Assembly (NCBI GenBank): GCA_036172245.1
Contig: JAYWIR010000012.1
Coordinates: 62,001 to 126,000 of the forward strand
Source of the DNA: Raillietiella orientalis
Taxonomy: Eukaryota
DNA: 64,000 nt
Reading direction: 5' to 3'
The notes below the pieces were generated by a model. It made no database searches. It saw only the letters and a program-made list of their open reading frames with translations, and had not been told where the DNA came from. A program made the position numbers and the translations under genes. The stretch's first letter is position 1. Each line of letters opens with the position of its first letter. Below, one piece after another: positions 6,118 through 59,600 of the stretch.

Positions 6118-6812
6118 GTTGTGGTTTATTACCCGGTTGCGCCGAAACGTTTATCAATAATGTCACCCGGGAAGTGTTTCCCAGGCAAGGGAAACAGAAG
6201 ATGGGGAGTATGGTTCCCGGCACGCAGGCCGGTCACACTGAGAGTTCGGAAAGGGAGGGAGGGGACAATAAATAAATAAATAAGATGGGTGGGTGGAGAT
6301 AGGGTATGCAGTCGAGGCGTTCCAATTCTCAGAGCCCGCGGTGAATGCCGCCAATTTCCGTCCTCACTTCTGCTCCAAGGTGTGGCCACCCGACAGACAG
6401 TTGCAGGTTGCAGGCTGCAGTGTCGAGGATCGATGTTGGCACCGCTCGCATCTGCAATACGTGGCGGGCCCTGATAGTGGCGCGGATGCAACATAGGATT
6501 GCGACGACCGCTCCAAGAGAAAGACCGCCACGCGTGAAGAAGCGGCGCATCCAGTAATTTGCGGTGTGTCCGGGGTGCAGGAGCGCTGAAGACAGCCGCC
6601 GCCACAGCTCCTGGAGGGCATCGCATTCAAACAGCAAATGCTGAAGCGATTCCACCGCTCCGCATTTGGCACAGTTCGGGGACGCAACTCCCCCGGAAAT
6701 CAGGTGCGCCCGCTGGTTGCAGTACAAACCCCAATGCACCAGCAGAAAAGCGTCCTGCTTCCACCGAAGGGGGAAGACAGTCGCGTGCAAGCACGCCGAA
6801 GGGACCACAAGT
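6118..6812 (-). mobile_element. 5'-truncated Tx1-like 3' fragment of the same family as the 1-5170 element
   Basis: FPLRWKQ..HWG..CAKCGAVESLQHLLFEC followed by a 3' UTR; 6761-6812 is identical to window 1-52. Confidence 0.9.
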
Positions 6813-7552
6813 GCTCTCTGGCACTCGAAACGTTCGCCACAGTGCATGCAATGTGGAGGCGCGCGAATCCAGTAAATAAGATTGCGCGCCTCTCTTGCGG
6901 ACTCGCCACGGCGCGCGTAACCTGGTTGGGGTTTTCACTCCAACCAGCGGACGAACCGTGTTTCCTGGGGAGTTGTCTCCCAAACTGTAAACGGTGCGGG
7001 GAAGTGGAAACGCTCCCGTACCTGCTCCTGGACTGCGGTTCCCTCCTAGGACTGTGGCGGAGGCTGGCCTCGGGTCTCCTGCACCAGAAAGACACTGCGA
7101 GAGACTTGATGCGCCGCTTCTTCACGCCAGTCGGTTTGTCTTTAGGTGCTGTCGTTGCAACCGTGTGTTGCACCCGCGCCATCGACAAGGCCCACCGAGA
7201 GTTGGAGAAGCTGGCCATCCCTCGTCAGCCCACCGGATTAGCCAGCGCGAGCATGTCGATGGCTGCCGTGTGGGCCCATCTGCCAGAGAGCGTGAGGAGA
7301 GAGATCGCCGGCATCCATCGCCGGTTCTGAAAGGAAGGAACGGCCATACCAAAGACCCCTGTCCACTGCCCTCCATATTTTTATTTTTTATAGCAGTGTA
7401 TTTGTGGTCCCCTCCCTCTCGTTCCGGACTTTCCGTATACCGACCTGCGTGTCGGGGATCCCATCCCCTTCGTCTCTTATGTATCTTTGTCCGGGAATTC
7501 TGTTCCCGGATAGTTTCTCAATAAACGCCCCGGCGCTCCCGGGTGATAAACA
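6813..7552 (+). mobile_element. ORF1 sliver (6813-6910) fused to a Tx1-like ORF2 C-terminus and 3' UTR
   Basis: FATVHAMWRRANPVNKIA matches ORF1 FATVHALWRADNPIKRIA; then CKRCGEVETLPYLLLDC...EIAGIHRRF*; terminal AATAAACGCCCCGGCGCTCCCGGGTGA. Confidence 0.85.
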
Positions 7553-8815
7553 ACCGACCCCCCTCGATCGTCTCGATCTCCTGGACGTCCGCCGCGGAGA
7601 TCACTTGGATCTCCTGCAGCAGGGCCAGGTCGAGCTCACGCAGGGTGTCGGCTGTATCTCGCCTGTTGCAGTCGCCGCGCAGCCCGTTGTCATTCCAACA
7701 GGCCACGCGAATCTGTAGGCGACAGGCGAGCCCAGGGGTTATTCCTGGGAACGTGGCAGTGCGGCTCGCGTCACCTTATCGGGCGGGACGGATGGAGAAG
7801 AAGGTACATCGCGCACCGGTTCTTTCTCCTCCATGGAGGCCGATTCCGATACACGCCTCATCGGGAGGGATAGGCAGGTATCTCCCACCTGCAATTCCTC
7901 CTCCATGAGGTCCGATTCGTCGGCTGCGCCGGTCGGTGGAAGGGGGAGGTTGTCACCTACGTACTTCCCTTCCTCCATCGGGGTTGACAGCTGATCGGTA
8001 GCGGGGAGTGGGATCTTCCCTTCCTCCGTTCCCACGCTGTCGGCTCCCCCCCCGGCTGCCTGTGCGTCCCGCCCGATAAGGAAGGTCGTGTGGACCAACT
8101 TGTTCTCAAGTGGACCGAATCGATCGACCTTGTCTTCACGAATGTGTACGCGCCGTGCGTCTCCGCGCTGGTCAACGAAAACGTGATCACTGCTGTGGTA
8201 GTCTCCCTCCTTTCGGTCGGAAGTCGAACGTCCTTTTTCTCGGCCTTTGCGGGTTGCTCCGTAACGGTGGCGAGCTTGTCGGCGGCTTTCCTTAAGTCCG
8301 CGTCACTGCGGTTTCCTCTTTCGCCGCAGCTTTCGACCGCTGTTTGCACAGCGACGGGGCTGTCAGCGTTGTTGCACACGGCAACGGCCTGTTCGCACGG
8401 CACATCGGCGTCTGTAAAACTCACCAGTGCGATCGTGCATTTATTCGGACTCTGCCTCTTCGCGGGTTTCGCGGTGTTTGCAGGGAGTTTGTCGTTGCAT
8501 TTTGCTTTTTCTTTCTTGTGGATGACCTTCTGCCTGTCAGGCTTTTCTCCTTCCACCTCGGTTCCCGGCGTTTCCGCAGACGAGGTGGTCGACGTGGCCT
8601 GTTTAACTGGCTCCGCATCAACCGTCTTTTCGGACGTCAGCCTGGGCTTACCGACGAGACGAGGAAGCCTCCTAGAAGTGATTTCCATACACCACTTCGG
8701 TGTTTTACAGGCTGGTCTTCCACACTGCAGCCAAGGGACATTCAAGACCAGCAGGGGGTATCCGCGGAGCCGCTGCAGCTCAAAGTTCGCCCAACTCTGG
8801 TACCAAGAGTGCCCA
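7553..8815 (-). mobile_element. Mosaic of Tx1-like APE N-terminus and ORF1 tail fragments, with a + strand APE sliver at ~8075-8160
   Basis: ACWNDNGLRGDCNRRDTADTLRELDLALLQE on the minus strand; GRVDQLVLKWTESIDLVFTNVYAP on the plus strand. Confidence 0.75.
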
Positions 8816-9084
8816 GTCTAATTACAGCCTTTTCTATTTCTATTTCTATGAGCCCGGTCAGGGAGAGTGATGAAAAGAATCAAGTATAGGAGATTGTCTT
8901 TTCATGAAAACGATCCCAAGGTCCAAATTTTATGCACGTTAAAGTGGACCCAAATGCCGTACGTTTTTCTGATTGTATCCATAATTATTTGAAAGAATAC
9001 ATGCACTCACCGAAGATGATGATTCTCTCTTCATTATAGACGCCGTGTAATAAGAAAAAAAAAATCACGGAATTAGTCGTGCAC

Positions 9085-9920: not shown

Positions 9921-11059
9921 AGCTGGCTGACGCAGCACCGTACCGTTGCTGCGTTTGCATCTTCGCTCTTTGAAGCTTTGCTCACGAGCACTATGATAGC
10001 CAAGGATGTTTGCAGAGGCGTGATCATTGCTGGTTGCAAACTCTTTGAAGCCCTAGCCAAGTGTCTCCTTCCAGGTTCCGGAAACCCGCTCAGCTACCTA
10101 CTGACCGGGAATCCTCAGTCAGCTAAAGGAAAGATACGTTTTTTTTGGATGGAACAGCCCAGCTTCTTCACCCTGTTGGAATGTTTTCAAGCGGGTGAGC
10201 CGGGGCTTTTATCTTTTAAAAAACATTTTAACAATTGGTAATTGCAGTCGATTGTTTTTGAATTGTATTGTGCTAAGAACAAATAAGAACAATGTGCCGG
10301 AACACATTGTTTTTATTTGTTATGCACTTGTTCATCGACTTGAGTGCCGGTAAGGCCTACTCCACTGCACGGGCTCTCCACTGTAAGGCCTGCACGCCCC
10401 GCTGGAATGAGGAATGGAATCATCACGGTTTCATGGACAAACGAAAAGCACCGTTAATATGTTATTCATTATTTCAACGGAATGCGCGCGAAAAAAGGAA
10501 ACTGCGCATTTCAAAATACCGCACGGTCTCGTGTCGCATGCGACTCCATGGCAACCACGGGGAAGCGCTCTATGAAGGCGGGCTGTCGCCACTGGGAGAA
10601 GAGGGAGGGCGACAGCTAAGACCGCCAGAGGGGAAGCGTCGAAACTGCCGCGTAGGATGGCTGCTGTGACAACAGGGAGTCTCTGCCCGGCCGCTGATCC
10701 TCACAGCGCCCGCGACTGCCCCGTGCCAGCCCCTCATGCCTTCAGTCGAAGAACCTTCGGAGGCTGGTCGCGGTCGAATGATCTATACCGATCTGAGCTG
10801 GACGCGCTCTCCCTGCGTGCATGATTGGTGATTTGGAAAGCGGGTTGTTTACCCCATCAGACCTCCCGGTTGGGGGTCCGCAGAGGACCAGAGCGAAATG
10901 CTGGCGACCACGAGGTGCAACTGACTGTGGCTTCGAGACTGGCCTCCCGAAACGCACCCTCGGCACCAGGAGGTCACTCAGGTCACACCTTCCAAGGAGA
11001 TGGGCAGCAGGACTGCGCCGTCTCCGATTCGCGCGCGCTTCCTGCGGATCGTCCTGCGC

Positions 11060-11760
11060 CATTCGCGTGGTCATATATTCCCGGACGCTACTGCCCCTCT
11101 CGGATGTCCAATGGAATCGGTGCTCCAAGAAGCACGTGGACTTCTTTGGCATTCGCTCTGAACCAGAAAGCAAGGCAAACACTCTTTTGACGACTGCGTG
11201 ATCGTGTTGCCTTGCGGGGACGTCCACTGAGGAAAATGGCAGCCGACAGCTTAGTGACCTTATAGCTTTGTGACCACGAGCTATCATTGTAGGGTTCACT
11301 GTATTAACGATGACGCTGGGGATACCTTTTCTTTTTAGTTTCTTATGTTCGAGGCCTAAAACACGAATACCAAAGCACGACATAAAAATAGAAGAGTGGA
11401 AAGAACAAGAAGCATTAGTGGTAATAGATCCGTGGATTGTTTATTAGAATCGGACACAGACGGAGATCGGCCAATAGATCTCACACGATGACGTGCAAAT
11501 CTTACTGATAACGACGATAATTTGAGTGGGGGACCGTCAAGAGTAATGAAAATTTGAAATAACAAGAAATATCTTGGCAACCAGTATCCCATCCGAAAAA
11601 GAGCCTTCATTTTTCTCGAAAAGGAAACTGTCCCGTAGATCCAGAATCACCCCACTCCGCTATGGCCTATTTCCGAAAACTATCTGATGACGAAATCAGA
11701 AGCAATGCGGTTGACTGCACTCATACTTATGCACTGCAATGTTGGTGATCCATCGAAATC
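11060..11760 (+). mobile_element. piggyBac-like element 5' part (transposase N-terminal relic)
   Basis: Inverted homolog of ~53440-54130; encodes SAMAYFRKLSDDEIRSNAVDCTHTYALQ, resembling the piggyBac N-terminal F..FF.DE....IV..TN.YA.Q block. Confidence 0.65.
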
Positions 11761-12478: not shown

Positions 12479-12717
12479 GGTCTCCAAGATCACCTGACTG
12501 TACTGAGAGCCGTCTTTACACTTGTATGTGCGTATTCGTTATCTTCAAATAATTTGTAGACTCTTCTTTAGGGTCATAGGCATTAAAATGCTAGGAAATG
12601 TCTGCATGCTGTGGATGGAATTACCGTGCTCACACCATTGAGCATACATTTCGCCCAACATTTTTCTTTCTGTCCGTAACAAGACTTCAAAGAATCTTCA
12701 ATATCTTCCTCTTTTAG

Positions 12718-13699
12718 AAGGACGGTCATACGGTGTAGCGCGTTGGTATGCGAAGACTTTGCTGTCCATCTGCCCCGTGCAGATGCATGTCACCCTTGTC
12801 AATGCACCAGCTGTACTTTTGCATCACGCAGCTTCTGTCGTTTCAGTGGGCCAATTGCATCTCGTCAGGATACAACATACTGGCTGTCAGATCGGAGGAA
12901 ACCATCCTGTCGCACCTCCTGCTATGGCTGCTCCACGCACGTGGACGCTGGTCTTGATGCAGATTCCAACTGGGGACTACGCAGGTAAGAGAACAGTTAG
13001 ATTTCTCATAAGAGTCCATTCCACACCTGGCAACCCACCTATATTTGGGTGAGTTCGCCTTGTGGATGAGTGCACGGGTTAGTTGCAGCAATTCACCACA
13101 CGTTTATACTTGTCCTTTGCGAACTCGTATACCATTCGACACTCGTCGAAATCGTGTGTTTAATTTGGTTTCTAGCTCCCAGTGGATGCCTGCAGTTCTT
13201 CACGGGACTCACTGGAACTTTGACATCTTTTGCGTGGACGGGCGCTGCTGGTTCTGTTCTTGTGAATAATCTGGATTACCAAATATGCATTCGACAGGAA
13301 ATGGGACGCAGAGTGCTGTGCTTGATCCCTACCCTTCTGCTTGCGAACACGGGATTTTCAATAGACTCTGCTGTAATGACTTCCTTGTCGAACGGCGCTG
13401 CAGCGATGTGCATGGCTGACTTTTTCCAAATCACTTGCGGAGCCACTATGGCGAACGCAATGCTTTCAACCGCTCCCTGCACCCAGAATCGCTTTTGTGG
13501 CGCCGTTCTCAGTCCAGTGAGCGGAGCGATGCCACCTTCCATGCCAGTTTGCAGTGAGTTCCAATGTCCTTCCACGGCTTCCTTCCTCATATGCTTTCCA
13601 GCGCGTGTCCTGCCGTTCATGCTGCGAATTCGTACGAACAACGTTATTACCACCGCGGCCACGAACCGTGGATTCAACTTGAACTTCTCGCAGTTATGA
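12718..13699 (+). pseudogene. Truncated duplicate of the CUB-domain gene (no exon 1; in-frame internal deletion)
   Basis: The ORF reads GCQIGGNH-P-VAPPAMAAPRTW, fusing sequence from 25385 and ~26584 of copy B; 13070..13699 translates identically to 26747..27376. Confidence 0.85.
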
Positions 13700-15977
13700 A
13701 CTGAAATCTGCACACTTCCAGCTCTCTCGAAAAATTTTTAGTTACCCATTTTTCCCCAGGACTGCAGTGTGTTTAAAGTTGAGGAGAACATCTCCTTTGG
13801 TCTGCTCTACTCTCGTCGGTTACCCGACTGCGTACTCTTTTCTTCCTTCGAAACCCTGAAAATCGCATTCGAGGTTTCTTCAGGAACCTCATTCACCTGG
13901 AAGGTACGCTTGCCAAGTCTTCTTTATGAGCGAGCATGACCACTTCCCCATGCGTCCTCTCTCTCCGACATACGTTCCTCCTCCTACCGAAGATTTCCCA
14001 GTGTTGGACGAGGTTCTGGGGCGCAGCAACCGTGCAACACTTTTGCGGTTTCCCCCCTAACAGAAAGGGTGGATGAAGAACAAATCCGAGGTTTACCTGC
14101 AGAGTTCGTGTTGAATTCCTTGACGTTCTCTCCAAAATATATTCCCTTCCACTCCGATTTGACGAAATTGCAAAGAGTTTTTCCCTTCTAATTGAGCATT
14201 CATGTGTTCAAATTTTGTTTTGCTGCATCCTCACCATCCCAGCAACGGCTCAATCAATTTTAAAAGCTGACGGGGTATAAGCCGACCGGTACCGGTTGGT
14301 TATTCCGAGATAACTGCTGAAATTAGTGACGCCAACGGGTTCGACGGGGAAGCGGGAGAGAAATCTTTACGTAGCAGAGGAAATACCTTTCTTCAGTCAC
14401 TTCCATCAGGCACCTAGGTACCACCTCGGGCGCCTCCACGCATAAGTTAACGCGACCGCACCGTCACCGGCACAACGGTTCGTGGAAGGTGTCCGACAAA
14501 AACGATGCCGACGGTCCGTCGTGTCTGATCGTTGGTTCTTCTATGCTACCAAACCTCCCATCACCATTGACCCTTTTTGTATGTATGTCAGCTGTAGTTG
14601 AATGCGCAGTGTCGTTTGCACGAAACGCATGTTGCCAGTCATCGTCTAAGACCGTGTGGAAGCACAAGGAGCAGCTTCTTTGAATCCCATACGGGGAAGG
14701 GTCAACGCAAACACGAATGTTTCGTCGTTGAGGTTTTGCATTCGGGTAAAAGCACCGAATAGGCTGGTCGACCCATTCGGAGGTGGCACCGAAACAAAAC
14801 ATGTGTACCTGATTGATTGTCCGGGGTTCCTCAGGGAATCAAATTCCACAAATCAAGAAATTGGGTACACCACCAAATACAGAAATAAACCACTGCGGCC
14901 GATGGGCACGAAACCCACTAACGCATGCTATGGCGGCCAACAGCCAAAGTACCCATAAACAAAGCGCATCAGCCCTCGTTCCCTTACCATTACCGAAGTC
15001 CTTAATACCCCAAATACAGACTTGCGTCTCCGTCGGTTGAAGGTGAATGCTGCTCGTTGAGAGAACTCCGTATTGAAGGGAACAAGAAGCGGTTCCTTTC
15101 CAACTTCAATCCGGAGAAGAAATAGAATGTTTCTCCCTATGGAGTTTCCATTACGACAAGATAAGGAAATGGATTCCTTTCAAAAATCTTTCCAAACAAC
15201 TGACCAAAGCGGACACTCATTAGTGGTGCCCGTTCTCTAGTCAGGAAGTGGCTCTTCCACGGAATCCCCTATCTTTAACATTTACCCACACCCAGCAAAA
15301 GGTGTCCAACTGCATAATGGTGCTCCGTGAGCCATCAGGCGGATGCCGCTTTTCCAGGTATTTGGCGAACTAAAAAAAAGAAAACTGGAGACAAAAAAAG
15401 AAGTCGTAAAAACAGAACCGAAGACACAAAAATCAACCAAAGCATCATCCTTCTTCTATGGACTTTTTTTGGGGTTTCCACGGGATCAACAGCCAGCAAC
15501 GCAACTATGAAATGAAGGGTCCTCCACTTTAGATTAGTCTTTCTATAAAAGGGCAGCACACGCCGATGGGTGCCTTCAGTGCAGACTTCAACAAAAGGCG
15601 ATTTTCTCGGACGACATTTTTCATGTACGATACGCAGGATCCACTCAAATCACGGCACTGGGGTTTCCGGGACAACCGCGGAGACCTGTTGGACTGACCG
15701 CGGAGACCTCCAGGAACTTTGGCGCAGACTGGCCTCAGAGCGCCTGAATCCTAAGGATACGTCCATTGGTTCGCCGAGACAACTCCATGCCAAAAAAGGA
15801 TTCACTACAATCACCGTGACCTCGACGGCATGTTTGTATCATGCGCAGTCTGCCATTCTCCGGAGATTGGGGGGCAGCGAAGGGATGGCATCTGCATGGT
15901 AGCCGCCTTCATGAGGGCCTGCCAGATGGCATCACCAGGAAGAAGGAAACAGGAAGGACATCACCGGCATCTCACGC

Positions 15978-16048
15978 CCGCGTCGGAGGCTTTGTGGTTA
16001 AGGCTTCCGCGCGTGGCACCATGCGTCACGGGTTCGAATACTTCGGCA
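15978..16048 (+). promoter_or_regulatory. tRNA-derived head (Pol III A/B-box-like) at the LINE 5' end
   Basis: CCGCGTCGGAGGCTTTGTGGTTAAGGC...CGCGTGGCACC...CGGGTTCGAATAC; aligns with the heads at 9731, 33351, 36857(-) and 39047. Confidence 0.65.
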
Positions 16049-16572
16049 GATAACTGATGCCACTGCATCGTTTGGGTTCCGAGTTTCTCCTGCAACGGCG
16101 CTGGTTGGCCGAGACATTCGGGCGTGGCCCCGGCGGTGGATAAAGCCGGCGCCTCCCGATTAATTTCGGAACAATGGGAGTCGACCTTCGGGTCCTCCCA
16201 GGAATAAAGGAGTGGGGAGTTCCCCCTCCAGTCGTGCAACGGAGAGAGGACCCCCCCACCGGGGGAACCCTTCGGTTTCAAGATGAAGCAGGAGCCCTCA
16301 CGGGCATTTACTTTAGTTGTTCAAAGGAACGGACCCCCCTGTTGGGGGGTCTCTCTGAGTCGTCGCCTCTTCACAGAGTGTGTACAAAGGAAAGAAGCTA
16401 AGCGAGAGCGATTCCCTGCGGGAAGCTGCAGCGCCCCTTCTGAGTTTCGGAAGCAACCCTGTGGGGGTTGTCTTCAGAGGAGTGAATACAGGAGCGGTTC
16501 CCTTGCGGGTTCCCTCCGGAGAAGAAATTCCTAGAAGCGGATCCTTTCCGGGTTCCCTTCGAAGAAGTTGAA

Positions 16573-17142
16573 ATGGAGAGGACCACCACCCCGCAAGGGG
16601 GGGTGTGTCCCTCCGGAGAGAATGAGGAAGGAGAGTTCCCTTTGGGGTTCCCCTTCGGAGACAACCAGGATGGAAAGGTAGGTGAAGAGCAAGAAGGCGA
16701 GAAGATGGAGGTAGCGCAGGAAGGCGCGGAAGAAGAAATAGCCGAAGCCACTCCGGTGTCGCAGGAGGCCCTGCAATCTACGGAGGAGCTGACATCACTG
16801 GCTAATGAAGTCATAGAGGTGCAGAGCGTTCTCCAGCAAGAGAAAATCTTGCAGAAGATCTGCAATGCACAGGAGAAGGTCAACCAGGTTGTGGAGGCCA
16901 CCGAGCGCGAGAAGCTAGAGGAACAGCTTCTCGACGTAAAGGCGAACTTCTGCGCCAAGGTCGAGATAGGGGCGCTATCTCGAAAATTGATCGCGCGGGC
17001 CGAACACTCGACGGAGGAGGCGGAAGTAACCGACCTCACCGGAACAGAGAGTGACGCCGGCAGCGAGAAGCCCGCTGCTTCTTCGTCGTCTGGAAGAGCA
17101 CGCTCTCTCAGACAGAAGAAGCTCAGGAAGGCCAAGAAATAG
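16573..17142 (+). CDS. Short acidic, coiled-coil-like ORF1 with a basic C-terminal tail
   Basis: 189-aa ATG ORF that is E/Q-rich with a heptad-like pattern, ends RARSLRQKKLRKAKK and stops 13 nt before the ORF2 ATG; no CCHC knuckle. Confidence 0.65.
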   Translation: MERTTTPQGGVCPSGENEEGEFPLGFPFGDNQDGKVGEEQEGEKMEVAQEGAEEEIAEATPVSQEALQSTEELTSLANEVIEVQSVLQQEKILQKICNAQEKVNQVVEATEREKLEEQLLDVKANFCAKVEIGALSRKLIARAEHSTEEAEVTDLTGTESDAGSEKPAASSSSGRARSLRQKKLRKAKK

Positions 17143-17155
17143 GTCTTCCCCTTTT

Positions 17156-20100: not shown

Positions 20101-20674
20101 CCTCCAGGAAGCCGCCGATCGCTACAGAAGCGACCGGATCAACCTGCTAGCGATCGGCACGATGCTCTGGAGGAGTGACCTTCCGCCGGGCACCCAGGAT
20201 GACCTCCTGATGTTTTATCATGGAGGAATCCAGAGTGGGTCCCGATTGCAGTACTATACCGGAAGACGGGAAGATCGAGACTGCACGGCATGTGGAGACA
20301 ACGACACGAGACTTCACGTCTTGACGTGTCCCACATTGCTGCATGACTGGCTGATCCTGAAAAGGATCATCGGACTCACGAACAGATCCGTAATGGAGAT
20401 CCTCGCCGGGATGTTTCAGGGGGATGGTAATGTTCCCTGTTACAATCCCATGGTGAGGACGACCATCGCCCTCTTCATCACCGCCATACTTGTGCGGTGG
20501 TGGAAAATGAGGAAAGCCAGAAGAGCCGCACCACCGATGGAGATCCTACAAGGGCTCCTGAAGAGGGAAATCGGCATTATAAACTGTGGGAAAATCCAAG
20601 CCTGGACGTACCGATTCATCCTGAAGAGGATAGAAGACGACGCCCGGGACCGAACAGCAGGAAACCCACCATGA
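17156..20674 (+). CDS. LINE ORF2 APE endonuclease-reverse transcriptase with a single in-frame TAG at 18446-18448
   Basis: SWNVNG, CLQETH, AGDLN, IDH, SDH (APE); GPD, WRPISILNSDAK, DMEKAFD, GVRQGDSLSP, YADD, KYLG (RT); CTACGDNDTRLHVLTC. ORFs 17051..18448 and 18455..20674 are in the same frame. Confidence 0.93.
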
Positions 20675-23542: not shown

Positions 23543-24587
23543 TCCTTTGGAAAGGTCGGGTGAATGAAAAACACGGCATCCTGACATGGATTTCTCTGTA
23601 GTATGTCAGTTCTTATGACAAGTGCTTGTTGGATCCCATTCGCGAGTATGAAACGAATGTACATTTGTGCGAGTGCGCACTGGTGTACATTTGCGGGCGC
23701 TCTTGGACATCGACAGACTAGGTAGGGATACAAATTGCACGTATGCGTGTGCCGCTATTATTCCATGTATGCATGCATACACACATTCTGTTCATAACCA
23801 TACACACGCAGAAGAATCCGTGTACATAACCTTGTGAACCTGCTACATGCGTATGCAAAGACACAATGGCCCGTAGCGTCTCCATATGCGCCCTGGGTAC
23901 ACGGGTATCTCATCTCCTTGGAAGACGAACAGATGGACGAGCAAAAAAGACATATAGCAATCATTGTGCTACGACCAACCGTCGAACCACGCAAGCGTTT
24001 GCATTGTTTTAAGAGTGTTGACTCAAATTTGTGGATATATGTAAGTAACATAACCCATGTGGTGATAATCATTCATGTCTGCATCAGCCATGTACACTAC
24101 TAGTTAGTAATTACATTGAGAGTAATTATGCCAATACAGGATCACCAACATACGTGTTCCTCTAATATCAGTGTAATCAGAGTACGTGAGCTAATAAATA
24201 CGTATATTCAAAACGACTCTATGAACGTTGAGAAGGCACATACATGTATTTTTTAGCATCCTTAGGCGCTTCCAATCTCACGACATCTTCCCCCGTCAGT
24301 GCCACTCTCCTTAAAGTATGTTAATTCACCAACAATTTGAAGAGTGTACCACATCTTTGGCTGCTGTACACTGTACCGCCGATGGATACTCGCCCAACAG
24401 CAACACTCAGTTGCGAATTTTTTCTTTTGTAGTTCTCGAGTAGGAATTGCGTGTTTTTCAAAACTCCCGTTAAAGGGAAAAAAACTAAGCAATCAGGAGG
24501 CGCCTTTTCAATAACTCAGAGGGAGAACATTCCTCTTTTTTTGTATCACTTGGTATTTCACCTTCTTTGTCCATCAGAACTCGCCTC

Positions 24588-47862: not shown

Positions 47863-48131
47863 TGCAGTGATGATTTCACCCATCGTGAAAGGCTCATCCA
47901 GGCGTGCTCTCTCTTCCTCCCCGATCGCCGGGGCGCCATCCGGAAGCAAAAGCCGGGAAAAATCCCGGTCCGGAGGCACCCTGGTGTACAGGGAGGAATA
48001 ATAACCACGCACTAGGCTGCTCACCTCTGCCGGGGCCGAGTGCTCCTGGCCTTCGTCGTCCAGCAGGCTGGGCTGTCGTGCTACCTGTGATGGAAGGACC
48101 CCGCCTGACTTTTACCCGCTCCCTGTTCCAG

Positions 48132-48911
48132 GGTTCCCTCCCCCGTCCTCCGGTGGGGACCGCTCCGACACGAGGAAGAGGTTCAACAGGTTCTTCGACG
48201 GGGTCATCCAGGAAGTGAAGCGAAGGTACTCCGAGTACCCTTCGGATCTCAAGGACGGCCTCCATCTCAGCGTCCTGACCACCGTTCTCTCCATTCATTT
48301 CGCCCAGCTCTTCTCCGCGGTCACGATGGGCGGTCTGTACAGTGTGTGCGGCCTCACCCGCCCGGAGGTCGGGGCGAACCGCAGCCTCCTCCAGGCGAGA
48401 AGACCGGCAACCTGATCGGCGTGTCCGAGAACATCCTGGCGACCGCCGTCTCCGGTGTCATCTTTTCCCTGCTGTCCGCCTAGCCGCTTGTGATCCCCGC
48501 GAGCATGGCATCCGGACTGCTCTACGATGCAAACCTCTTCGCGGTACGCTTCAGTGTGGTCACGTCCAGCACCGTAAGCTCACCCTGCCCTCCCCAGGTC
48601 TGCAGGTACCTGGAGGTGGACTTTCTGTCCTCCCGCATCTGGATCGGCATGTGGACCTTCGCCGTGGCGATCGTGGTCTCCTGCCTCGATGGCAGCGTCC
48701 TGGTGCACTGGTTCACCAGGTTCACGGAGGAAATCTTCTCCTTCTTCGTATCCGTGTTCTTCATATACGAGGCGTTCCACAAGCTCTACAAAGTAGGCAC
48801 TCCCGTGTAGGCCTGTATCGGCGCACCGCTCCGTTTCCTTCAGATCTACCTCCAGCAGTCCCAACTTCCTGACCGCTCGAACGCCACTCAACGAACTTCC
48901 GACAAAGACTG
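48132..48911 (+). pseudogene. Inverted copy of four SLC4 exons
   Basis: Exons 48132-48341, 48395-48543, 48598-48792 and 48844-48911; the same TAG at 48481. Confidence 0.9.
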
Positions 48912-49329
48912 GTAAGGACCTTCTCTACGGTCACGTGCACGTACCTCCCGTTCGCTCCGCTGCGGCGCCCTCCGTGCAGACCAGCTCCGCCTCGTATTTT
49001 CTGATTCTGTCGCGAAGGAACGAAGTGGTGCGGCGCGGCACGAGAAATGGCCTTCTTCTCCATGTCAGCTACCAGGGTCCATTCTGGTCTTGCCCCATCT
49101 GCTTACCCAACCGTTCCGAAGACCTTTCGGACCCAAGGAATGCGCTCATTAAGTTCCTTTCTTCGATCACGTGCTTTCCTTCATCTGGACGAACTCTTGC
49201 AACCATCGATCCACGTAGTGCACTACGCGAATCCTCAGCTTCTGCACTTGTTTCGATTCGTTTGGTGCATCCGGCTCTCCTCCATCCAGAACATCCCCTT
49301 GGCCCATTTGGACCTTGTAGTTTTTTTCT

Positions 49330-52205
49330 CCCTGCCTGCTAGTAGGCTTCTACGCACGCCGAACTCTGCGTGAAATTCTTGAATTTCCACCGAGTTGCAC
49401 GTGGGCGGAAGGGACACCCCTTGCTTCGGCGATGCCTTTCCTCCAAAGGGCGCTTCACGAAAGCCGGAAGCTGAGGTGGCAAGTCTGCTGCCGTATCGCA
49501 GGCAGAGAGAAGATAATGAGCGGCTGGACCATGGGAGAGCTGACAGATGCTACGACCCCTAGTCTCCAGCCGCGTGGATTAAGAAGATGGGCGAGCTGCT
49601 CGGCATTCGATTGTATGACCTGAAGTGGCCCCCGGTTCTACTTGGATCCAGGATTCTTCCCCTGAAGTGGCAAGAATCGGCGCTTCTGTGGCTGCATTGG
49701 GGTCTACCCTGCAACGCGCGCCACTTCCACTGGACGCGGGGAAGAGTAAATCCTGCATGTGCCAGGTGTGGGGAGCGGGAGTCGCTCCCCCACCTCTTAT
49801 TTGATTGCCCTGCCGTCCGGATTCTTTGGGATCGTCTTAGAACGGCCCTTGGGATACCAGATGGTGGCAACCTCAGAGGCGTGTACAGTCTTCTCTTCGT
49901 GCGGGACGCCCTCAGTCCACCCGCAGCCCTGGCAGCACGTTGCTGCATTCGTGGTATCGTGGCGGCCTGGAGTGATGCCGAAGATGAAGATTGCATCGTG
50001 AGGGACGTCATTGAGTATGCTGTTCGCTTCCTGCAGAGAGCTACCCGATGGCCCCATCTGGGAAGAATGAAAATGGAACTCGAAGGCATCCTGCAAAGGA
50101 TGGGCCCTCCCAGCAGTTGTCTGTGATCCCTTCCCGGCCCTCCAAACTCCTTTTGTTGTTTTTTCTCTTATTTTATTTTATTTTTGTTTTCTCCCCCATC
50201 CCCTTCCACTGCCGAGGAGAGCCACACCGGGCTGCGTCCGGGTGTCCCGGCAGGTCCGGTATTGCGTGGCCGTCAGTGGGGCCTTGTACCACGTTCTTGA
50301 ATGACGGAAGAAATGTTTTTTTAATAAATGTCCCGGCGTACCCGGGTGGCATCACCAAATCTTTTCGGGAGACGGTCCATGGGGAACTGCTGGCAGAACT
50401 CTCGGACCGAGACTTTCAAATCGTCCCAGTCGTCGAGCGTCTGCAGGCTGAAACCTCGCAAGAACGCGCGGAGGTGTTCCGCTGCGCCTGGCTTCGTCAG
50501 CCAGTCCCCCGGTAGACTCCACGCCTGCGAGGGGGGCCCCCTGTCGCGCGAGCGAATGACGAATTCTACACGGGAATGATCGGAGACAGCGGACTGTATC
50601 TTACCTCTCCTGCCCACGCGACAGCGCAGGTGATCGTCGAGGAAGACGTGGTCCACGCTCCGCTCCATCCCGGCGTCCCCGGCCAACAAGTTGGATGCGT
50701 GCACCGTGGCGCACATCTCGTTAACCGGGGTGGCCTCTGTCCTCGCCGCACCTGATAGCAGGCGAATATTAAAATCGCCGGCTATCAGGTGCGCCGTGCG
50801 CGCGCCTGCCTCCGACAGCCAGTTGCGCTGGAACGCACGGAAGAATGCCGTCCGTGCCACGCGCGCGTGACCGCCGCTCGGCGCGTACACGTTCGTGACG
50901 ACGAGATCGATCGAGCCGGACCACCTGAAGGTGATTTGCCCGACCCTACCTGTCTCATCGAAACGAACTTTCCTCACCGAACCTTGTAAGGCAGGCAAGA
51001 CGTAAGACGGCGCTGCTAGTGCTCCATTGGGGACTCCTTTTCAGAGCACGCCTCTTCCACTGGACCTCAGGGAGTGTGGATGCCATTTGTATAGAGTGTG
51101 AGGAAAAGGAGAGCTTCCCCCACTTAATCATAGAGTGTGTTGCCCTCCGGCTGATGTGGGATTGACTTTCGTCGATCCTAAGCATTCCGGTGGGCGACTC
51201 CAAAAACATTTTTGGTCAGCTCCTGATGCGGGACGCCCTGCCAACCGCCGCATGTGTTGCAGTTTTCTGCTGCATACGTGGAATTTTGGATATGTGGACC
51301 GCAACCAAGAGAGGACGAAGAAGTCGAAATGCCATACACTGGGCAGCCATCTCCTTGGAAAAGGCTTCCCGTTGGCGCCGACTTACAAAACATTTGTCGG
51401 CACTTCTCATTCAAAACGGGATGCAGATGTCTCCTCGCGGCGTACGGCCTTTTCACGTATCCTTTTCCTTTCCTCCCCTCCCCATAAAACTTTGTCCAGC
51501 CGGGCATTTTTCTTTTTTGTGTTTTTTTTTTCTGCTTTTCGAGCCCTCTTTGCCAGAGGAGAGGACCTTACCGGCCTGCGGTATGGACAGGTGCCACAAT
51601 ACAGTGAAAACACATCTTTCTAAGTGAAAAGAAGTTCAAGTGACAAGACTTTAATACGAAATTTTCATTTGAAAAATTTTACTAATAAAAGTCCCAGCTT
51701 ACCCCGGTGAAAAACCTCAAATTCCCATTTCGCCGTGATGCTGCTGCTCAGCTGCTTCCTGAGGGAGGGAAACGCTGCGATGAGGAAAGTTCTTCCAGCC
51801 CACCCTCTTCTTTCGGGATCCTCCAGGATGCTTCGAAGCCCGCAGCGCTTCTTGCGCGCGAACGGAAAACGGCCGCACCTGTTCCGTGCGTTTGTCCTGG
51901 CTCCCCATCCACATGGGAACAGTTTCCTGTAGCCAGGCACCACCGTTCTCGGGGCGACAAGAAATCCGTCCCGTGTTCTTGCTCGTCAGAGTGGTCACCC
52001 GCCGAACCTGCAATCCACATTGGCAGATGTGGAGGCGCCGCGACAGGAACCAACACAGTCCCGCGTAGCCGGTGGCTCGCTTGATCAGGTACCGTGCGAG
52101 CTCGCACCAGTTGGCGCTCCACAACTTCGCCACTAGGGCCAGTGCCGTTCGCTGGGGCTGCTGCTCCAGGGGCTCCAGCGTCAGTAGCCGAGACCTCAAT
52201 CCGTC
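49330..52205. mobile_element. Nested Tx1-like fragments: 3' end (+, ~49330-50348), APE (-, 50349-50985), 3' end (+, ~50990-51712), RT-distal (-, 51713-52205)
   Basis: CARCGERESLPHLLFDC; DETGRVGQ..NVYAP..AGDFN..SDH; HLIIEC; LLTLE..ALVAKLW. Confidence 0.88.
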
Positions 52206-52999: not shown

Positions 53000-54130
53000 T
53001 GATCATGTAACACTTTGACGGTGTAAATTTTGAAATTGTAAATGATTCCAGGCGAATAGCACGATAAAAACGCTTTGTAGCCCCATTTCGTAGTTTTCTT
53101 CTGCACCAAACCTACGTTTGCCTTTCAATGGTAGTATTTGTTCATCGACACCCAGGTGCTCACCCATCGGAATAGGACTGAAGTTTCGAACCAATTTGTC
53201 GAGAATAGGTTCCATTTCTTGTGCTTTGTCCATTCCCTCTGAATCATTCGTATTAGCCTCCTAATTTGTGCCAAAATGTGTTTTGGATTCAATTTTTTCG
53301 CATCAAGCACGACCGTATTCTCAACGGCAGATCTCTCTCCTCTGATTGATCTCCAACACATCCGAGACCTTGGTAACCCTTAAACTGACATCAGAAGGCA
53401 ACAACCAAACAGTCCTTGTATTCCATAATATGAAACAGCTGTGGATTCCGCAGGATCACCAGCGTTGCAGGGCATAAGTATGGGTACACTCGACCGTATT
53501 ACTTCTGATTTCGTCATCAGATAGTTATCGCAAATAGGCCGTAGCGGATTGGGGTGCTTCTGGATCTACGGGACAGTTTCCTTTCCGAGGAAGATGAAGG
53601 CTCTTTTTCGGATGGGATACTGGTTGCCAAGATATTTCTTGTTATTTCAAATTTTCATCACTCTTGACGGTCCCCTACTCAAATTATCGTCTCTATCAGT
53701 AAGATTTGCACGTCGTCGTGTGAGATCTATTGGCCGATCTCCGTCGGTGTCCCATTCTAATAAACAACCCACGGATCTACTACCGCTAATGCTTCTTGTT
53801 CTTTCCACTCTTCTATTTTTATGTTGTGCTTTGGTATTCGTGTTTTAGGCCTCGAACATAAGAAACTAAAAAGAAAAGGAATCCCCCAGCGTCGTTGCAA
53901 ATACAGCGAACCTTACCATTATAGCTCGAGGTCACAAAGCTATGATGGTCAGCTGCCATGATCCTCACTGGACGTCCCGGCAGGTCAACACGGTCACGCA
54001 GTCGTCCAAAGAGTGCTTCCCATGCTTGCTGGTCCAGAGAGGGTTCCAAACAAGTCGACGCGTTTCCTGGAGCACCGACTCCATTGGTCATCCGAGAGAG
54101 ACAGTGGCTGCGGGGATATCTTAGCGCGCG
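53000..54130 (-). mobile_element. piggyBac-like transposase relic
   Basis: EHLGVDEQILPLKGK and, in a shifted frame, KWGYKAFLSCYSPGIIYNFKIYT, matching the piggyBac DDD-domain VDE.M.PFKG...KWG.K motif. Confidence 0.8.
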
Positions 54131-57100
54131 AACGCCGCGGACGGAGCTCGTCATCAGCTGATCAAAGAGTGGTAATCATTGTATCACAGTTAATCAATGA
54201 AAGTTTCCAAAGAGTTCACCTCTCTCTTCTTGGCCTTGGTAATTCGGAACACAGCGTGGCTTCCCCAGAGCTAGGTCAGCATGCAGACCGACTGCTTTCC
54301 TCCTCGGTTGATCCAAGATTCTGAATCGAATTTTCTCCTGTGCTTTCTCTCCTTCCGTTACGGCTGAATCACATTCATGTCCTCTAAATTTATTCAATTT
54401 AGAACTCTCGTTTCGTGAACGCTGAACCCTGTTGAGACGTTCGTGTGTTCCTAGTTATTTTAGATGAACATCCATCTCTGTATGGGACTCAAAAAAAGAT
54501 GCGTTGCATCTGTGGGCTCCTTCGAATTAACGGGGTTTCGTGATCCCGCCTGCAAGCGAAGGTACGCATCGTTGGTCAATCCTCGCCATCTTTGAGAAAG
54601 CGAATTGTTTTCTGTTATTTTCTGCTTCTCTCACTAGAGGTCAAGCGGGAGCAAGTCAGACTGGAGATTCACATAGAACGTTTGCGGTAGGGTTTGGGAA
54701 TTCATAGTGTTCTGGAAGTTTGAGGTCCCCTTTTCCTTCTGAATGCTCCGTCGATGCGGTCGGCGTCCAATTGTGAGCTACTTTGGTGCTTTGGGAGAGC
54801 CACGGATTTGCCTGCCTTCCTGGAATGCTTTTTTATTGCTTTTTCTAGAGGAGTCTGGACTGACCTCTTGTACAAAAACCAGCGTCTCAGTTTGGTCGCT
54901 GGTTCTTTGAGGGAATTCCCCATCCAGCTGAAAAACCTCCCGTTCCTTCACATGTGGTCCCTAGAACGATCGGCAGCTCGTAGCAAAGGCCTTGCCGTGA
55001 TTGGTCAATAATAAGACAAGAATTTTAGCCGCGTCGCAGGGAAGCTCGAATCCTAGGAAACCCGGGTCAGCTCCCCAGTCAGGAAACCGGGACCATCTCG
55101 GCTCTCCGCCGTGCCCGCGGCATTCTGTTGCTCCTGTGCCGTCCAAGGGCAACGGAGCGACCTCAGTACGCCACCATCCGACTTGAAGATGACAATGTCC
55201 AGCGCTCTGTGCGTCAGCCAGGAAAGGTGTCACGGACGGAAAGAATTCGTGGTACCCCCGGTCGCGAGGTCTGACATCCCGATGGCTGTGCAAGAGCAGC
55301 CGCGAACGGACGGCGAGCGAGTCGCCGGTTTCCTGGCCTGGGCTTGGCCTTCGTTGTGGGAAGAACGGAAGTATGTGGAAGAGACGCTGATCACCTGCGA
55401 ATGAATTCTGGGTCACCGCGCAGCTCACGTGATGCCAATCTCTGCTGCCTTGAAGTAATTGTGGAGGCAGAGTCCCTGAGACGCCTAACGTGCTACTCTT
55501 CAGCGGGAACCGTCCCGCAGTCTGCCAGACCGTTGCGGGAGTCGAGTCTCCGAGAAGCTCTCTTCGGTAGATGGGAATTTCCGTCACGGAAGGTGTGAAG
55601 GCGGCGGGCTTTTTCCCTTGGGCTGCATGGCGCCTCCTCAGGGAGCCAGTCGTCGCAGCTGGTCCTCTGCGACGTTCAGAAATGAGCAGCCTGCGAAGTC
55701 CCCTTCCACCTGACCATCGCAGAGATCCCGCACTGACTTCCCGAAGGCTCTTTGAGTTTCCCGTCCCAGGCGCTCCCTTTTCGCAGCTTCCCTGCAAGGA
55801 AGGCGTCCTGCTGCGTTTACCGGGCGCACCACCGCAGAGAGCCTGCGGAAGGAGAGCCGTCGCTTCTGCTCCGGGCCGGTGTCTGCAAACCTTCTCCTCC
55901 TGCTACCTGTTAGGAAACAAAAGGCCGGACAAAAGACCATCTTACTTTCTTCTAGTGGATGCACCTGTCTCCGATTTTCCCGGCTTGTTCCAAGAAGCAC
56001 CTCCCTCTATCGACCTATCTTGACCCTTGTGTTCCATTGGCGGACACACTCAGCGGGTTCGAAACCTCCCCACAGGAGAAGGTATTTTTCCTTTCCCTCT
56101 TTTGCAGAGAAATCTGAACGTGAGGTATTGTCCCCACGTGTGTCAGATGCGCTTTGCAGGCTCCGGACTGGTTTATTTTTGGCGTGAAGTCTTTAGCTTA
56201 CCTGGAAGACGGGCTACCAGACCAGACGAGACTTGCGCAGGCAGTCTTCATCGCACCTATTGCTTGGTCCCGGCTTGCATGCCATCCTCATCTTGAGAGC
56301 CTGGTTTCGCTCCACAAAGGCTCTCTCACCGCATTTCTTGCGTTTCGCCCCTCCCGCCTGGTGTGCGCAGCACGGAACCCCGTTCGCTGAGGCATTCAGG
56401 AGCAGCGCTCCGCCGGACCGACGAATGGTTTCGTTTCATAAATGCAGACCGCGTACCAGAAGGCAGCGCGACGCCATGGACCACCCTCCTTCCTCCCCTG
56501 CGAGCCGTGTCGTGAGGGTCGAGAAAGCGGGAAGCTGCATCTCATGCTCCCGCCGCCCTCAATCTTTGCAGGGGGAGGCGAGGTCATCAGAACGCAAATG
56601 CCAATACCACCTCTCCGGCGTGAGGCCTCGCAGAGTCCAGAGGGATGCGATCCTGTGATCCAGCCCATCTCATTCGGATGCGTGCCATCAGTTACTCCAT
56701 GAGGATGAAGAATTCTAACTTCAGCTTTCTCTGATCAGCATCCAATCGGAGGTCACGAGAGTAGAAAGGAAAGTTCACGGAACATCCTGGATTTTCAGTC
56801 CTTAATGTGCATCTTTGTTGATTGGATCGAGAATGCAGCATTGAATACGAATGAGATTCTTATCCAGCATCCCGGATGGTAGGGCGTGCACGGATCCGTC
56901 TCCCCTTTTATGGACACCAGCAACACAGTGGCTTCGATCTTATCCACTCATTCCCTGTTCACATGCGCATGGAAAACGATCGCAATGAGAGTTTATTATT
57001 TAAAAAAATAATTAATAAAAAATTGATGTATGGAAGTGGCACACAAGGATTTTCGCGAATTGCGGGGATCTTGTGTCACAGGCACGTGACCGAGGAAAGA

Positions 57101-57163
57101 GCGTCTTTCCCATCCTTGCGTGAGGACCAGAGAATATCGCTATGTGAAACGTGACGGCATTCG

Positions 57164-58537
57164 CTAGGTAAGACCAGGTTACGTTTGTTTGGGTTAGGTC
57201 GGGTGAGGTGAGGTTAGGTTAGGCTGGGTTAGGTTAGCGTAGGTTAGATTTCTCGCCTGGTCACCGAAGTGTTTAATAAAATAAACCAGTTGGGAACAGA
57301 GTTCCCAACCGACGAAGAAACAAGCAAAAGGCAGAGTCCACCGGCACGCAGTCTGGGATAACAGAAGTTCGGGACGGAGCGGGTGATCGGGGACAACATA
57401 TAGAAATTCAAATGCGGTGGGTTTGCTCCGGGAGGCAATGGAATAAAAACAAAAACACTGAAGGAGTTGCGGAGCGAACGGGGATGGGGAATGAAACAGA
57501 AAATAAATAAGTAAATAAAATAGAATTGAGAAAGGGTAGGAAAGGGCAAGGTTCTCCGGAGTCCGCCGTTCTTAACTGTCCATCAACCAGCTGTGTATGG
57601 CGGAGATCTCCTCCTCTGCTCTTTCTTCCAGGTGACATCACCTTGCAGCCTTCTCATGTAGGCGCCTGCCAGACAGTGGACCTCCCTTCGCTGCTATTAG
57701 GCTAGGTAGCGTTAGGTGAGGTTGGGTGATGTAAGACTTGGTGAGGTTAGGTTAGATGAGTTAGCCTTAGTGAAGACAGGTTATGTTAGGTGAGGGTAGT
57801 TTGGATTCTCTTAGCTTAGGTTAAATGAGGTTTGTCAGGTCACAGTGGTGGAACACTTATTTCTATCACGCGCATAAGACTTGCCAAAAGCCGGTACGCA
57901 GACCGGTGAGGTCCGTTCCAGAAGCAAAGGGGAAGGGAAAATCACGCACACACAAAAACAAACAAAAAAGAGAAAAAAGAGGGAGGGGAGGGAGATGGCA
58001 GGGCAGGCCGGGGAAGGGGATCACTGCTCGCCTGGAGACGTCCTCTGCATCCTGTCCAGGATTGCCCAAGTGGGGAGATCACGACGCGGTCTTCAAAAAG
58101 ATCCTCGTCCAGTGTATGGCGTCCCTGCCATTTTGGCCTCTTGTTGCGTTCCAGCATGCCAAGACTCCGCAAATGCAGCAGAGAGTTGCTAACGACGCGG
58201 CTGGCGGCACAGCGACACGCACGAAGAGAGGCCCCAAAATGTCTCTGGGGTCGCCTACCGGGATTCCTAAGATTCGTCGTCAGACGATCCCAAAGGGGCA
58301 CGTCGATGGGCGGCACAATCCATCAAAAGATGCGGGAGTGTCTCCTTCCCACATCTGTCTCACTTAGCGTTCACGCTCTCTCATGTGCAGTGGTGAAGGC
58401 GTGTTTTGCATAAGAGTTCCCATGCAACACCGGCAACTCCGACTCCTGCCACTTGAGGTTAGATGGGGTTAGGTTGGGGGTGTTGGGTTAGGTAGGGTTA
58501 GGGTTTGTGAGTTTAGGTGTGGTAAGGTCAGGTTGAG
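57164..58537 (+). repeat. Three degenerate (TTAGG)n tracts: ~57164-57247, 57697-57840, 58457-58537
   Basis: Runs of GGTTA, GGTGA and GGTAA pentamers. Confidence 0.8.
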
Positions 58538-59600
58538 TTTTTCTTCCGGTTTTACCGATGCATTTATTCTTAAAATAACAACTAAAAGTCATACAAATTC
58601 ACAATAACTTGGTCGAACGTGCTTAAAACTCACCAAAGCCGACACATAGACCGGCTAGGTCCGTTTCCGCGGCGACGGGAAAGGGAAAACCGAAAAAAGA
58701 AACAAACAACAAAATGGGAGGAAGAGTTTTCTGAGTAGCGGGGGAAGGAGGGGAAGGGATAACATTTCGCCGAGACACGTCCTCTGCACCCTGTCCAGGA
58801 TACTGACAAGTTCTGTATTTTTTTTCTCCCAGGTGGGACCATCTTGAGGTAGTCTTCAAAGAGATCCGCACCGAATGAATGGCGTCCCTGCCATTCTGGC
58901 TTCTTCTTCCCGTGTTCTAGGCTGCCACGACTCCGCGGACACGGCAGAGAACTGCTAGGGACGCGTCTGCCCGCAGAGTGACATGCATGAACAGGAATCG
59001 AAAGATGTCCCTGAGACCGCCCACCGGGAATCCTAGGGTCGTCGCGAAGTGATCCCAAAGGAGTTAGAGGGCAGCACAGTCTAACAGCAAATGCGGGAAG
59101 ATCTTCTTCCCGCAGCTGCTGCACCAAGCATTCGCATTCCCCCGTGTCCAATGATGAAGGCTCGCTTTTCGTGGGATTCCCCCATGCAACAGCAGCAGCG
59201 CCATCTCTTGCCACTTGAGGTGAATGGTTCCACTGTTCCAACATTCTGAGTGGTCAATTCACATCCTCCGGAGGGATGTCGAGCAGCTCCCCCCAGCGTA
59301 AAAGTCCTTTTTGAGAAACACGCGTACGCGCAGCGTTCGCTAGCTGCCGAGTTGTCCACGAGCTGTTTGGTTCTTCTCTGCCCTGGATGCGGCAGGACTC
59401 TTCCCTCTTTTTCGGAAAGTCGCTGTCCCTTGCGCTTTAAAGGGTGGGCAGCGCTGGAACAAAGGGGATGAACGAAGCTCCCTTGCTCTTGACATACCCC
59501 TTGACATAGCCCGGTTTTCAAACGGAGGGCACAGAGTCCCTGCCGCGACCTCACCTCGCCTTCGCGCTGAACACAGGCGGCGCAACGGTAGCGTGAAGAT
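57248..59600 (-). mobile_element. Three co-oriented Tx1-like 3' fragments (57248-57696, 57841-58458, 58538-~59600)
   Basis: LKWQE..HG remnants and the ORF2 C-terminal end, T-rich 3' UTRs with the CTGCGT stem-loop, and AATAA/ATTAAA terminal motifs. Confidence 0.8.

Follow-up and report, generated by a model that had tools for sequence, protein, structure and literature searches.

A stretch of 64,000 nt of the Raillietiella orientalis genome (assembly GCA_036172245.1, contig JAYWIR010000012.1, positions 62,001 to 126,000; hereafter the window) harbours a family of long interspersed nuclear elements (LINEs) whose 3' untranslated regions (UTRs) carry a small hairpin, HP1, made of a 5-bp stem and the loop CTGCGT (CUGCGU in the RNA). 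The hairpin lies on the sense strand, downstream of the second open reading frame (ORF2); it is conserved among diverged copies, its stem has changed in compensating pairs, and the elements that bear it end without poly(A). We read HP1 as a selected RNA hairpin of a poly(A)-free, stringent L1-type lineage, most likely serving in the recognition of the RNA template, and we put the probability of this reading at about one half.

Six good copies of HP1 were found, at 6217-6232 (-), 7440-7455 (+), 47740-47757 (+), 50224-50245 (+), 57891-57906 (-) and 58637-58656 (-), and each copy is named below by the first coordinate of its hairpin. All of them had been quoted, at these coordinates and on these strands, in a preliminary description of the window, and all six (6/6) lie, as had been proposed there, in the sense strand of a LINE 3' UTR beyond the end of ORF2. 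In the four copies with an intact frame (6217, 7440, 47740 and 50224) the distance from the ORF2 stop codon to HP1 is 96, 109, 111 and 97 nt, respectively, the stop codons of the first two being at 6331-6329 and 7328-7330; the distance from HP1 to the 3' end is 94-111 nt in the four of the six copies whose 3' end is present. Copy 6217 displays the 5-bp stem and the CTGCGT loop, while 7440 carries A-T for G-C at pair 2, 47740 has a 6-bp stem with A-T for G-C at pair 3, and 57891 has T-A for C-G as closing pair, each of these replacements being compensated. The stem of 50224 extends to 8 bp with one G-G mismatch, the single mismatch already reported, and its closing pair is G-C for C-G; that of 58637 has 7 bp, two G-U pairs and the loop CTATGT, again as described before. 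The three decayed versions announced near 23387, 51571 and 57341 exist as well, at 23388-23403 (+), with one mismatch, one G-U pair and a changed loop, at 51571-51586 (+), where the alignment fails 3' of the loop, and at 57341-57356 (-), with two mismatches and an intact loop. In the first two of these, which form a third subgroup, HP1 stands 142 and 130 nt from the 3' end.

CTGCGT is present at 46 sites, counting both strands of the window, against 29.6 +/- 5.5 expected, and at least 46 sites were obtained in 2 of 100 shuffles. At least five Watson-Crick pairs flank four of the 46 sites, namely copies 6217, 7440, 47740 and 57891; a further site, at 37970-37981, has a 3-bp stem and is unrelated. 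The window has 228 hairpins that combine a loop of 6 nt with five or more Watson-Crick pairs, and in them CTGCGT, seen four times, outnumbers every other non-palindromic loop. When a covariance model of HP1 and the pyrimidine tract preceding it was run unfiltered over the window, the six copies scored 56-68 bits, and the next best of the 46 matches listed (E up to 10) was the decayed 23388 copy with 18.7 bits.

That the stem varies in compensating pairs and the loop stays fixed, as had been claimed, is borne out by several measures, all based on the 30 stem cells that the six good copies provide (five pairs in each). RNAalifold returned the same 5-bp helix unaided, with both-sided changes in three of the five pairs; 29 of the 30 cells are paired and four are double changes. 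The covariation score of HP1 is 0.547 versus 0.234 +/- 0.079 in column shuffles, only 1 of 500 of which matched it, and, depending on the measure, the observed covariation was reached by 1 to 10 of 500 column shuffles. Once the 3' partner was slid by 1-3 columns, pairing fell to only 13-47%, with zero double changes. The six copies differ from their consensus 13 times, 11 times in the ten stem positions and twice in the loop (of a single copy), and when the same 13 substitutions were placed at random, 0.15% of 200,000 trials preserved pairing in 29 or more of the 30 cells. At least four compensated events can be distinguished: G-C to A-U at pair 2 (7440) and at pair 3 (47740) and, at the closing pair, C-G to U-A (57891 and 58637) and C-G to G-C (50224). 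The CTGCGT loop is intact in five of the six copies, and pairwise identity averages 89% for the loop, 76% across the 16-nt hairpin and 45% in the flanks. Decay of CpG was considered as a cause of the paired transitions and discarded, because the observed/expected ratio of CpG is 0.94. A hairpin kept across diverged subfamilies while its flanks have decayed is a mark of the 3' hairpins of stringent LINEs, and so is a stem kept by compensatory changes, a feature which is seen here in few copies and weakens when the decayed ones are included.

The elements that bear HP1 also have the poly(A)-free, defined 3' end of a stringent LINE. For one copy of the family, 23388, this end could be fixed by comparison with a duplicate of its flank that is devoid of the element: it lies at 23542-23545, in ...TCC, directly against a flank that continues in the duplicate, with no A-run in between; the left junction offers no clean empty site. 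Five further ends of the family, read from the sequence, finish in ...ACC and likewise have no A-run, and AATAAA stands about 30 nt before the DNA end. The tail of copy 47740 is cut at 47862, inside a second hairpin (HP3, described below), by a 1464-bp inverted duplication (43810-45273 versus 47863-49326, 99.9% identical), which includes the 5' part of this LINE copy and represents either an error in the assembly or a rearrangement that took place very recently. The duplicated flank of copy 23388 belongs to a segmental duplication, 12479-23937 versus 24959-31356, which is 92-99% identical; in its first copy, 22094-23542 holds the LINE fragment with the 23388 hairpin, where the second has about 100 bp of unrelated sequence. 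Since the duplication, this first copy (12479-23937) has also gained an intact L1-like element at 15978-20811 (+). It is only for this element, unrelated to the HP1 family, that a clean empty site with target-site duplications is available: a perfect 14-15-bp duplication at 15964-15977 and 20813-20826 faces the empty site at about 29580. This L1-like element finishes with AATAAA and a C4/G4 hairpin, with at most two A's and no poly(A).

HP1 is embedded in a tail with a repeated architecture. The six tails of about 210 nt, once aligned, have a mean column identity of 51% and follow the same order: the ORF2 stop gives way to a T-rich stretch, the C-rich pyrimidine tract, HP1 and a variable part usually containing another hairpin (HP2), after which come an AATAAA-like signal, HP3 and a short A-rich end in ...ACC or ...TCC, the whole 3' UTR measuring about 210-260 nt. 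The earlier statement that the surrounding UTRs barely align is accordingly only partly right: it misses the upstream pyrimidine tract and the block of AATAAA and CCGG-type hairpin at the 3' end, which are conserved too. The pyrimidine tract lies about 20 nt upstream of HP1 in copy 6217 (6253-6265, -) and is found in the other copies at 7408-7420 (+), 47710-47722 (+), 50191-50207 (+), 57926-57939 (-) and 58677-58689 (-). At a homologous place between this tract and HP1 stand short, differing palindromes (47723-47728, 58669-58674 and 23364-23373), which might be a further small helix, a self-pairing site or chance; RNAalifold called no helix there. In copy 6217, HP2 has a stem of 8 bp and lies at 6166-6185 (-), past HP1 on the way to the 3' end, and its counterparts at 7490-7510 (+) and 57290-57308 (-) differ from it by compensating pairs, as read by eye and from single-sequence folds; in copy 47740 its place is taken by a 7-bp hairpin of unrelated sequence (47806-47824, +).

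The terminal block was located in six tails. In copy 6217 (6123-6155, -) it comprises the AATAAA-like signal, HP3 at 6132-6146, with a CCGG-type 5-bp stem and a 5-nt loop, and an A-rich end in ACC without poly(A). It recurs at 7520-7555 (+), with AATAAA at 7520-7525, HP3 at 7529-7543 and the end near 7555; at 50323-50356 (+), with AATAAA at 50323-50328, HP3 at 50332-50346 and the end near 50356; and at 58535-58568 (-), with AATAAA at 58563-58568 and HP3 at 58546-58558, where a degenerate array of AACCT units follows directly. The block of the 23388 copy occupies 23510-23545 (+), up to its poly(A)-free end at 23542-23545, and that of the 51571 copy 51684-51716 (+), with a decayed HP3. In the four copies that are best preserved, 10-13 nt separate HP3 from the 3' end. 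An alignment fold of the five tails that keep both ends yielded exactly two helices, HP1 and HP3. The three inner pairs of HP3 are kept in all five aligned copies (5/5), no pair being changed on both sides, and its loop is variable.

Upstream of HP1, ORF2 closes with a C-terminal CCHC domain of the zf-RVT type, at 6332-6772 (-) in copy 6217, with counterparts at 6932-7327 (+), 47194-47625 (+) and 49653-50123 (+); Pfam zf-RVT was detected in three copies with E values of 2e-4 to 3e-3, below Pfam's own cut-off. These domains are 51%, 39% and 32% identical to that of the 50224 copy, and since identity is no higher than 32-51%, the word divergent applied earlier to these LINEs is justified. Copies 6217, 7440 and, by its UTR, 57341 constitute subgroup 1; 47740, 50224, 57891 and 58637 constitute subgroup 2; 23388 and 51571 form the third pair. 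A long copy at 82-5237 (-) belongs to the family of 6217 because bases 1-52 are identical (100% over 52 bp) to 6761-6812; its own 3' UTR falls beyond the left edge of the window. It contains a candidate ORF1, an apurinic/apyrimidinic-type endonuclease (APE; Exo_endo_phos, 2.4e-13, at 2577-3176 on the minus strand) and a reverse transcriptase (RT; RVT_1, 9.6e-12), with in-frame stops, and its ORF2 was searched as two open pieces on either side of an in-frame stop. Against solved structures, the N-terminal part of the RT matched human L1 ORF2p at 1e-21 and R2 at 1e-4, L1 and R2 being the only LINE proteins among the matches listed, and the C-terminal part did not discriminate. Because APE, RT and CCHC domains occur together and the best solved match is human L1 ORF2p, we assign the HP1 elements, on these predicted domains, to the L1 clade in the broad sense, Tx1 included; the narrower label Tx1-like, given in the preliminary description, is a putative one.

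The L1-like element at 15978-20811 is 4.8 kb long and nearly intact, a single in-frame stop separating 17030-18448 from 18449-20674. It matches APE at 1.2e-15, RVT_1 at 2.8e-32 and human L1 ORF2p at 2e-37; it has no HP1, and its RT is about 30% identical to that of the HP1 family. Homologues of its ORF2 (18449-20674) are at most 36% identical among the 120 matches listed, few of which bear source names and none of which names a LINE clade. The first 90 nt of this element hold a tRNA-like GGTTCGAAT box, and ARAGORN finds no tRNA.

Three copies of the HP1 family are accompanied by repeats of the TTAGG type. The 57341 copy runs, at its 3' end, straight into a degenerate array of AACCT, the reverse complement of TTAGG (57165-57246, -), and similar arrays come after the 57891 copy (about 57695-57828, -) and the 58637 copy (58455-58534, -), so that within 57165-58540 three 5'-truncated LINE 3' ends from two subgroups stand head to tail in one orientation, each followed by 80-130 bp of AACCT repeats. 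These are the only AACCT/TTAGG-like arrays of the window: 20 of its 23 near-matches fall here, all on the minus strand, versus 3.25 expected, and none of the other six tails of the family is followed by such an array. The end of the LINE tail, ...AACC, matches the AACCT repeat unit. The arrangement suggests an oriented insertion into TTAGG-like repeats, or priming by microhomology; a tandem duplication may account for some of the array, since in two of the copies the first ORF2 codon is the same.

We interpret the tail as a module for stringent recognition and priming because it combines a fixed loop on a free stem with a precise end lacking poly(A). The ORF2 protein, or its ribonucleoprotein particle (RNP), would recognise the fixed CUGCGU loop presented on the stem, and this recognition would select the element's own transcript as template, which is what stringent means here. 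HP3 and the ...ACC end would then determine exactly where target-primed reverse transcription begins on the nicked target, without recourse to poly(A). In such a division of labour, which we infer from the arrangement of the tail, HP1 would be the likeliest specificity element and HP3 the setter of the start site.

Several observations weigh against this interpretation. The sample is small, consisting of six good copies which had been selected for their pairing by the preliminary description, and the shuffle controls ignore the relatedness of the copies; once the three decayed copies are counted as well, pairing stands at 39 of 45 cells and the covariation score is reached in 19 of 500 shuffles. 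A single old insertion, duplicated in tandem, may have given rise to both 57891 and 58637, which share their first ORF2 codon and lie behind similar repeat arrays; such an origin would cost one independent lineage and none of the four compensated events. The minimum-energy fold of the single sequence contains HP1 in only two of the six tails (47740 and 58637), and the z-scores of the tail folds are weak, from -2.8 to +0.3. A related tail at 20812 to about 21180, with its duplicate at about 29580-29950, keeps the pyrimidine tract and the terminal motif and has no recognisable HP1. Pattern scans of metagenomes, prokaryote genomes and viral contigs, detailed below, found no relatives outside the window. 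Within it, no short interspersed nuclear element (SINE) sharing the tail was recognised, the six strong matches to the covariance model, and those matches to the terminal motif that fall in the known tails, adjoining LINE sequence; this negative is weak evidence because the search covered only 64 kb. Finally, HP3 is an equally good candidate for the recognition site of the RT, as it stands at the very end of the element and is kept in more subgroups than HP1, which lies about 100 nt from the end.

This last point leads to the alternative that the terminal block (AAUAAA, HP3 and the ...ACC end) is itself the element by which the RT recognises and primes its template, and that HP1 was selected for another job, be it ORF1p or RNP packaging, the export or translation of the transcript or, jointly with the C-rich tract, its stability. 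We consider it rather unlikely, and yet it accounts for much of the tail: HP3 and the motif that follows it are the most widely kept features, the inner pairs being retained in 5/5 copies, and the motif after HP3 is recognisable also in the tail without HP1. Moreover, HP3 lies 10-13 nt from the 3' end versus 94-142 nt for HP1, and it is in the place of HP3 that the recognised hairpin of eel and zebrafish L2 sits, immediately ahead of short tandem repeats at the 3' end. What argues against the alternative is that HP3 has no pair changed on both sides and a variable loop, so its conservation could be one of sequence only, whereas the fixed loop and free stem expected of a hairpin read by a protein belong to HP1. 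Nor is distance from the end foreign to functional 3' UTR hairpins of other LINEs, SART1 being reportedly such a case (Osanai 2004 is the work said to describe it).

It is quite improbable that HP1 and HP3 act jointly, through alternative or tertiary pairing, the tail switching between two folds by means of either a helix of their CCGG-rich halves or a contact of the HP1 loop with the segment after AAUAAA. Both hairpins being CCGG-rich, they could pair over a long range, and the minimum-energy folds of three of the six tails (6217, 7440 and 50224) do pair the halves of HP1 with those of HP3, which also counts against HP1 as a local hairpin; by eye, 3-4 nt of the HP1 loop are complementary to the start of the HP3 loop or to the bases after AAUAAA in several copies. 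However, the alignment fold of five tails gives two local hairpins, the changes in the arms of HP1 compensate one another and not HP3, which is nearly invariant, and a complementarity of 3-4 nt easily arises by chance. The long-range helix between HP1 and HP3, present in single-sequence folds and absent from the alignment fold, was therefore rejected. The idea that no structure was selected at all, an inherited GC-rich, palindrome-like motif having survived by chance in dead copies of which the paired ones were picked by eye, is highly improbable: there are six copies only, selection bias is real, decayed copies weaken every measure and the shuffle controls ignore relatedness, but chance would have to produce four different compensated double changes in a 5-bp stem and a loop intact in 5/6 copies while the flanks are 45% identical, with no double change in slid registers, P of about 0.0015 in the simulation and no CpG hypermutability.

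Returning to HP1 as the hairpin that serves template recognition, it is possible, if on the whole doubtful, that the window reveals a non-plant lineage of L1/Tx1 type with a complete poly(A)-independent 3' module, in which a C-rich tract, a CUGCGU hairpin read by a protein, a CCGG hairpin and an ...AACC end would work together, the latter being able to prime on GGTT-ended nicks such as those in TTAGG-type repeats. As a cis element it would be compact, with a hairpin of 16 nt and a terminal block of about 35 nt.

Searches beyond the family brought no partner or relative. A tRNA scan of the window gave 0 genes; Rfam gave 0 matches at gathering score over the window and, at E up to 10 in the stretches 6090-7570 and 47600-50370 (four tails), nothing that overlaps the hairpins. 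In metagenomes, a protein-pattern scan built on the ORF2 C-terminal alignment returned 405 pattern matches, none confirmed as a relative, and a DNA pattern of pyrimidine tract and hairpin, with the inner pairs left free, returned 118 loci which all look like bacterial chance matches; all three inner pairs are complementary in 7 of these 118, against 4 of the 5 copies in the window to which this pattern applies. In prokaryote genomes a pattern made of loop and terminal block occurred at 48 loci, to which viral contigs added 6, none in a LINE context, and among these 54 matches five flanking pairs were seen in two and four in two. The HP1 motif is not described in the available parts of the literature on LINE 3' hairpins and Tx1, in which the motif letters themselves were not searched.

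Besides LINEs, the window contains an exon-like stretch at 32124-32858 (-) with a match to Pfam HCO3_cotransp (1.6e-13), the membrane domain of bicarbonate transporters, which is SLC4-like and the only host-gene signal among 21 long open frames scanned; protein searches for relatives of this exon gave no matches. A dispersed repeat, inverted and 87% identical, links 11050-11760 to 53444-54143, and a tandem array of 33/66 bp lies at 61431-61598.

Which template a LINE chooses decides what else gets mobilised, such as SINEs and processed pseudogenes, and mammalian L1 is the textbook case of a relaxed LINE that reads poly(A). The contrast implied by the preliminary description, according to which L1-type elements rely on poly(A), has exceptions that have already been published, for L1-clade LINEs of monocots and of Chlamydomonas (PMC3472496). 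Even for human L1 and Alu, a 3' stem-loop has been proposed to aid recognition, according to the available part of PMC5135761; the claim of a stem-loop in the 3' UTR is common to these and to the HP1 elements, and human L1, unlike the latter, depends on poly(A).

A functional model comes from the stringent L2 LINEs, eel UnaL2 and zebrafish ZfL2-1 and ZfL2-2, in which, as far as the accessible text of Hayashi 2014 (PMC4176376) goes, what is recognised is a 3' hairpin whose stem varies and whose key loop bases are fixed; Kajikawa and Okada 2002 and Nomura 2006 are said to be further works on these elements. They have in common with the HP1 LINEs a 3' stem-loop with a few key loop bases and an end that is not poly(A). 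They differ in belonging to another clade, and in that ORF2p binding and function were shown there by experiment and are predicted here. A further comparison is offered by the Tx1 clade (Xenopus Tx1, Keno, Kibi, Koshi, Tx1-Mar), presented in the portions at hand of Kojima 2015 (PMC4494074) as animal, L1-related LINEs of the APE type, many with a target preference; in the same portions SINEU, thought to be mobilised by Tx1-Mar, has poly(A) tails and no 3' terminus in common with the LINE, and for this reason Tx1 elements are not described there as recognising a hairpin. Tx1-1_ACar of the anole is telomere-specific and was reported to target telomeric repeats (part of PMC10088271, citing a Repbase report). 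The HP1 LINEs resemble these elements as L1-related animal LINEs of the APE type and may do so in target choice, three copies lying here in TTAGG-like arrays in one orientation.

Another comparison is with green plants. Nearly all L1-clade families of flowering plants end in poly(A), and lineage 1a of the monocots (LINE1-1_ZM, with ZmSINE2/3) has a conserved 3' hairpin with compensatory changes and a conserved loop (Ohshima 2012, PMC3472496); in Chlamydomonas, an L1-clade LINE shares its 3' end with a SINE (PMC3472496). Stringent recognition was proposed to be ancestral in green-plant L1s (PMC3472496 and, in its available part, Ohshima 2013, PMC3747384). As in the HP1 LINEs, the 3' region of lineage 1a is far better conserved than the rest, with a compensated stem and fixed loop bases, and was taken there as a sign of stringent recognition. 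The monocot hairpin lies in the last 45-50 nt, has the loop UCU and a conserved CGAG flank and is common to SINEs (PMC3472496), whereas HP1 has the loop CUGCGU, stands about 100 nt from the end and is followed, after AAUAAA, by a second, terminal hairpin, with no poly(A) and no SINE partner found. The concept is thus already known, with a stringent L1 exception published for the monocot lineage and, by a shared LINE/SINE tail, for green-algal L1, and our motif, absent from Rfam, opens no new category. If the complete 3' module of a non-plant lineage, envisaged above, is real, stringent template recognition would exist in the L1 clade outside green plants, which would support the view that stringency is ancestral for the clade as a whole and was relaxed independently in mammals and in flowering plants. 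The HP1 LINEs would then stand beside those of monocots and green algae as a further L1-type lineage, with its covarying hairpin, its poly(A)-less end and possibly a tail directed to repeats, and would provide a data point on this ancestral stringency.

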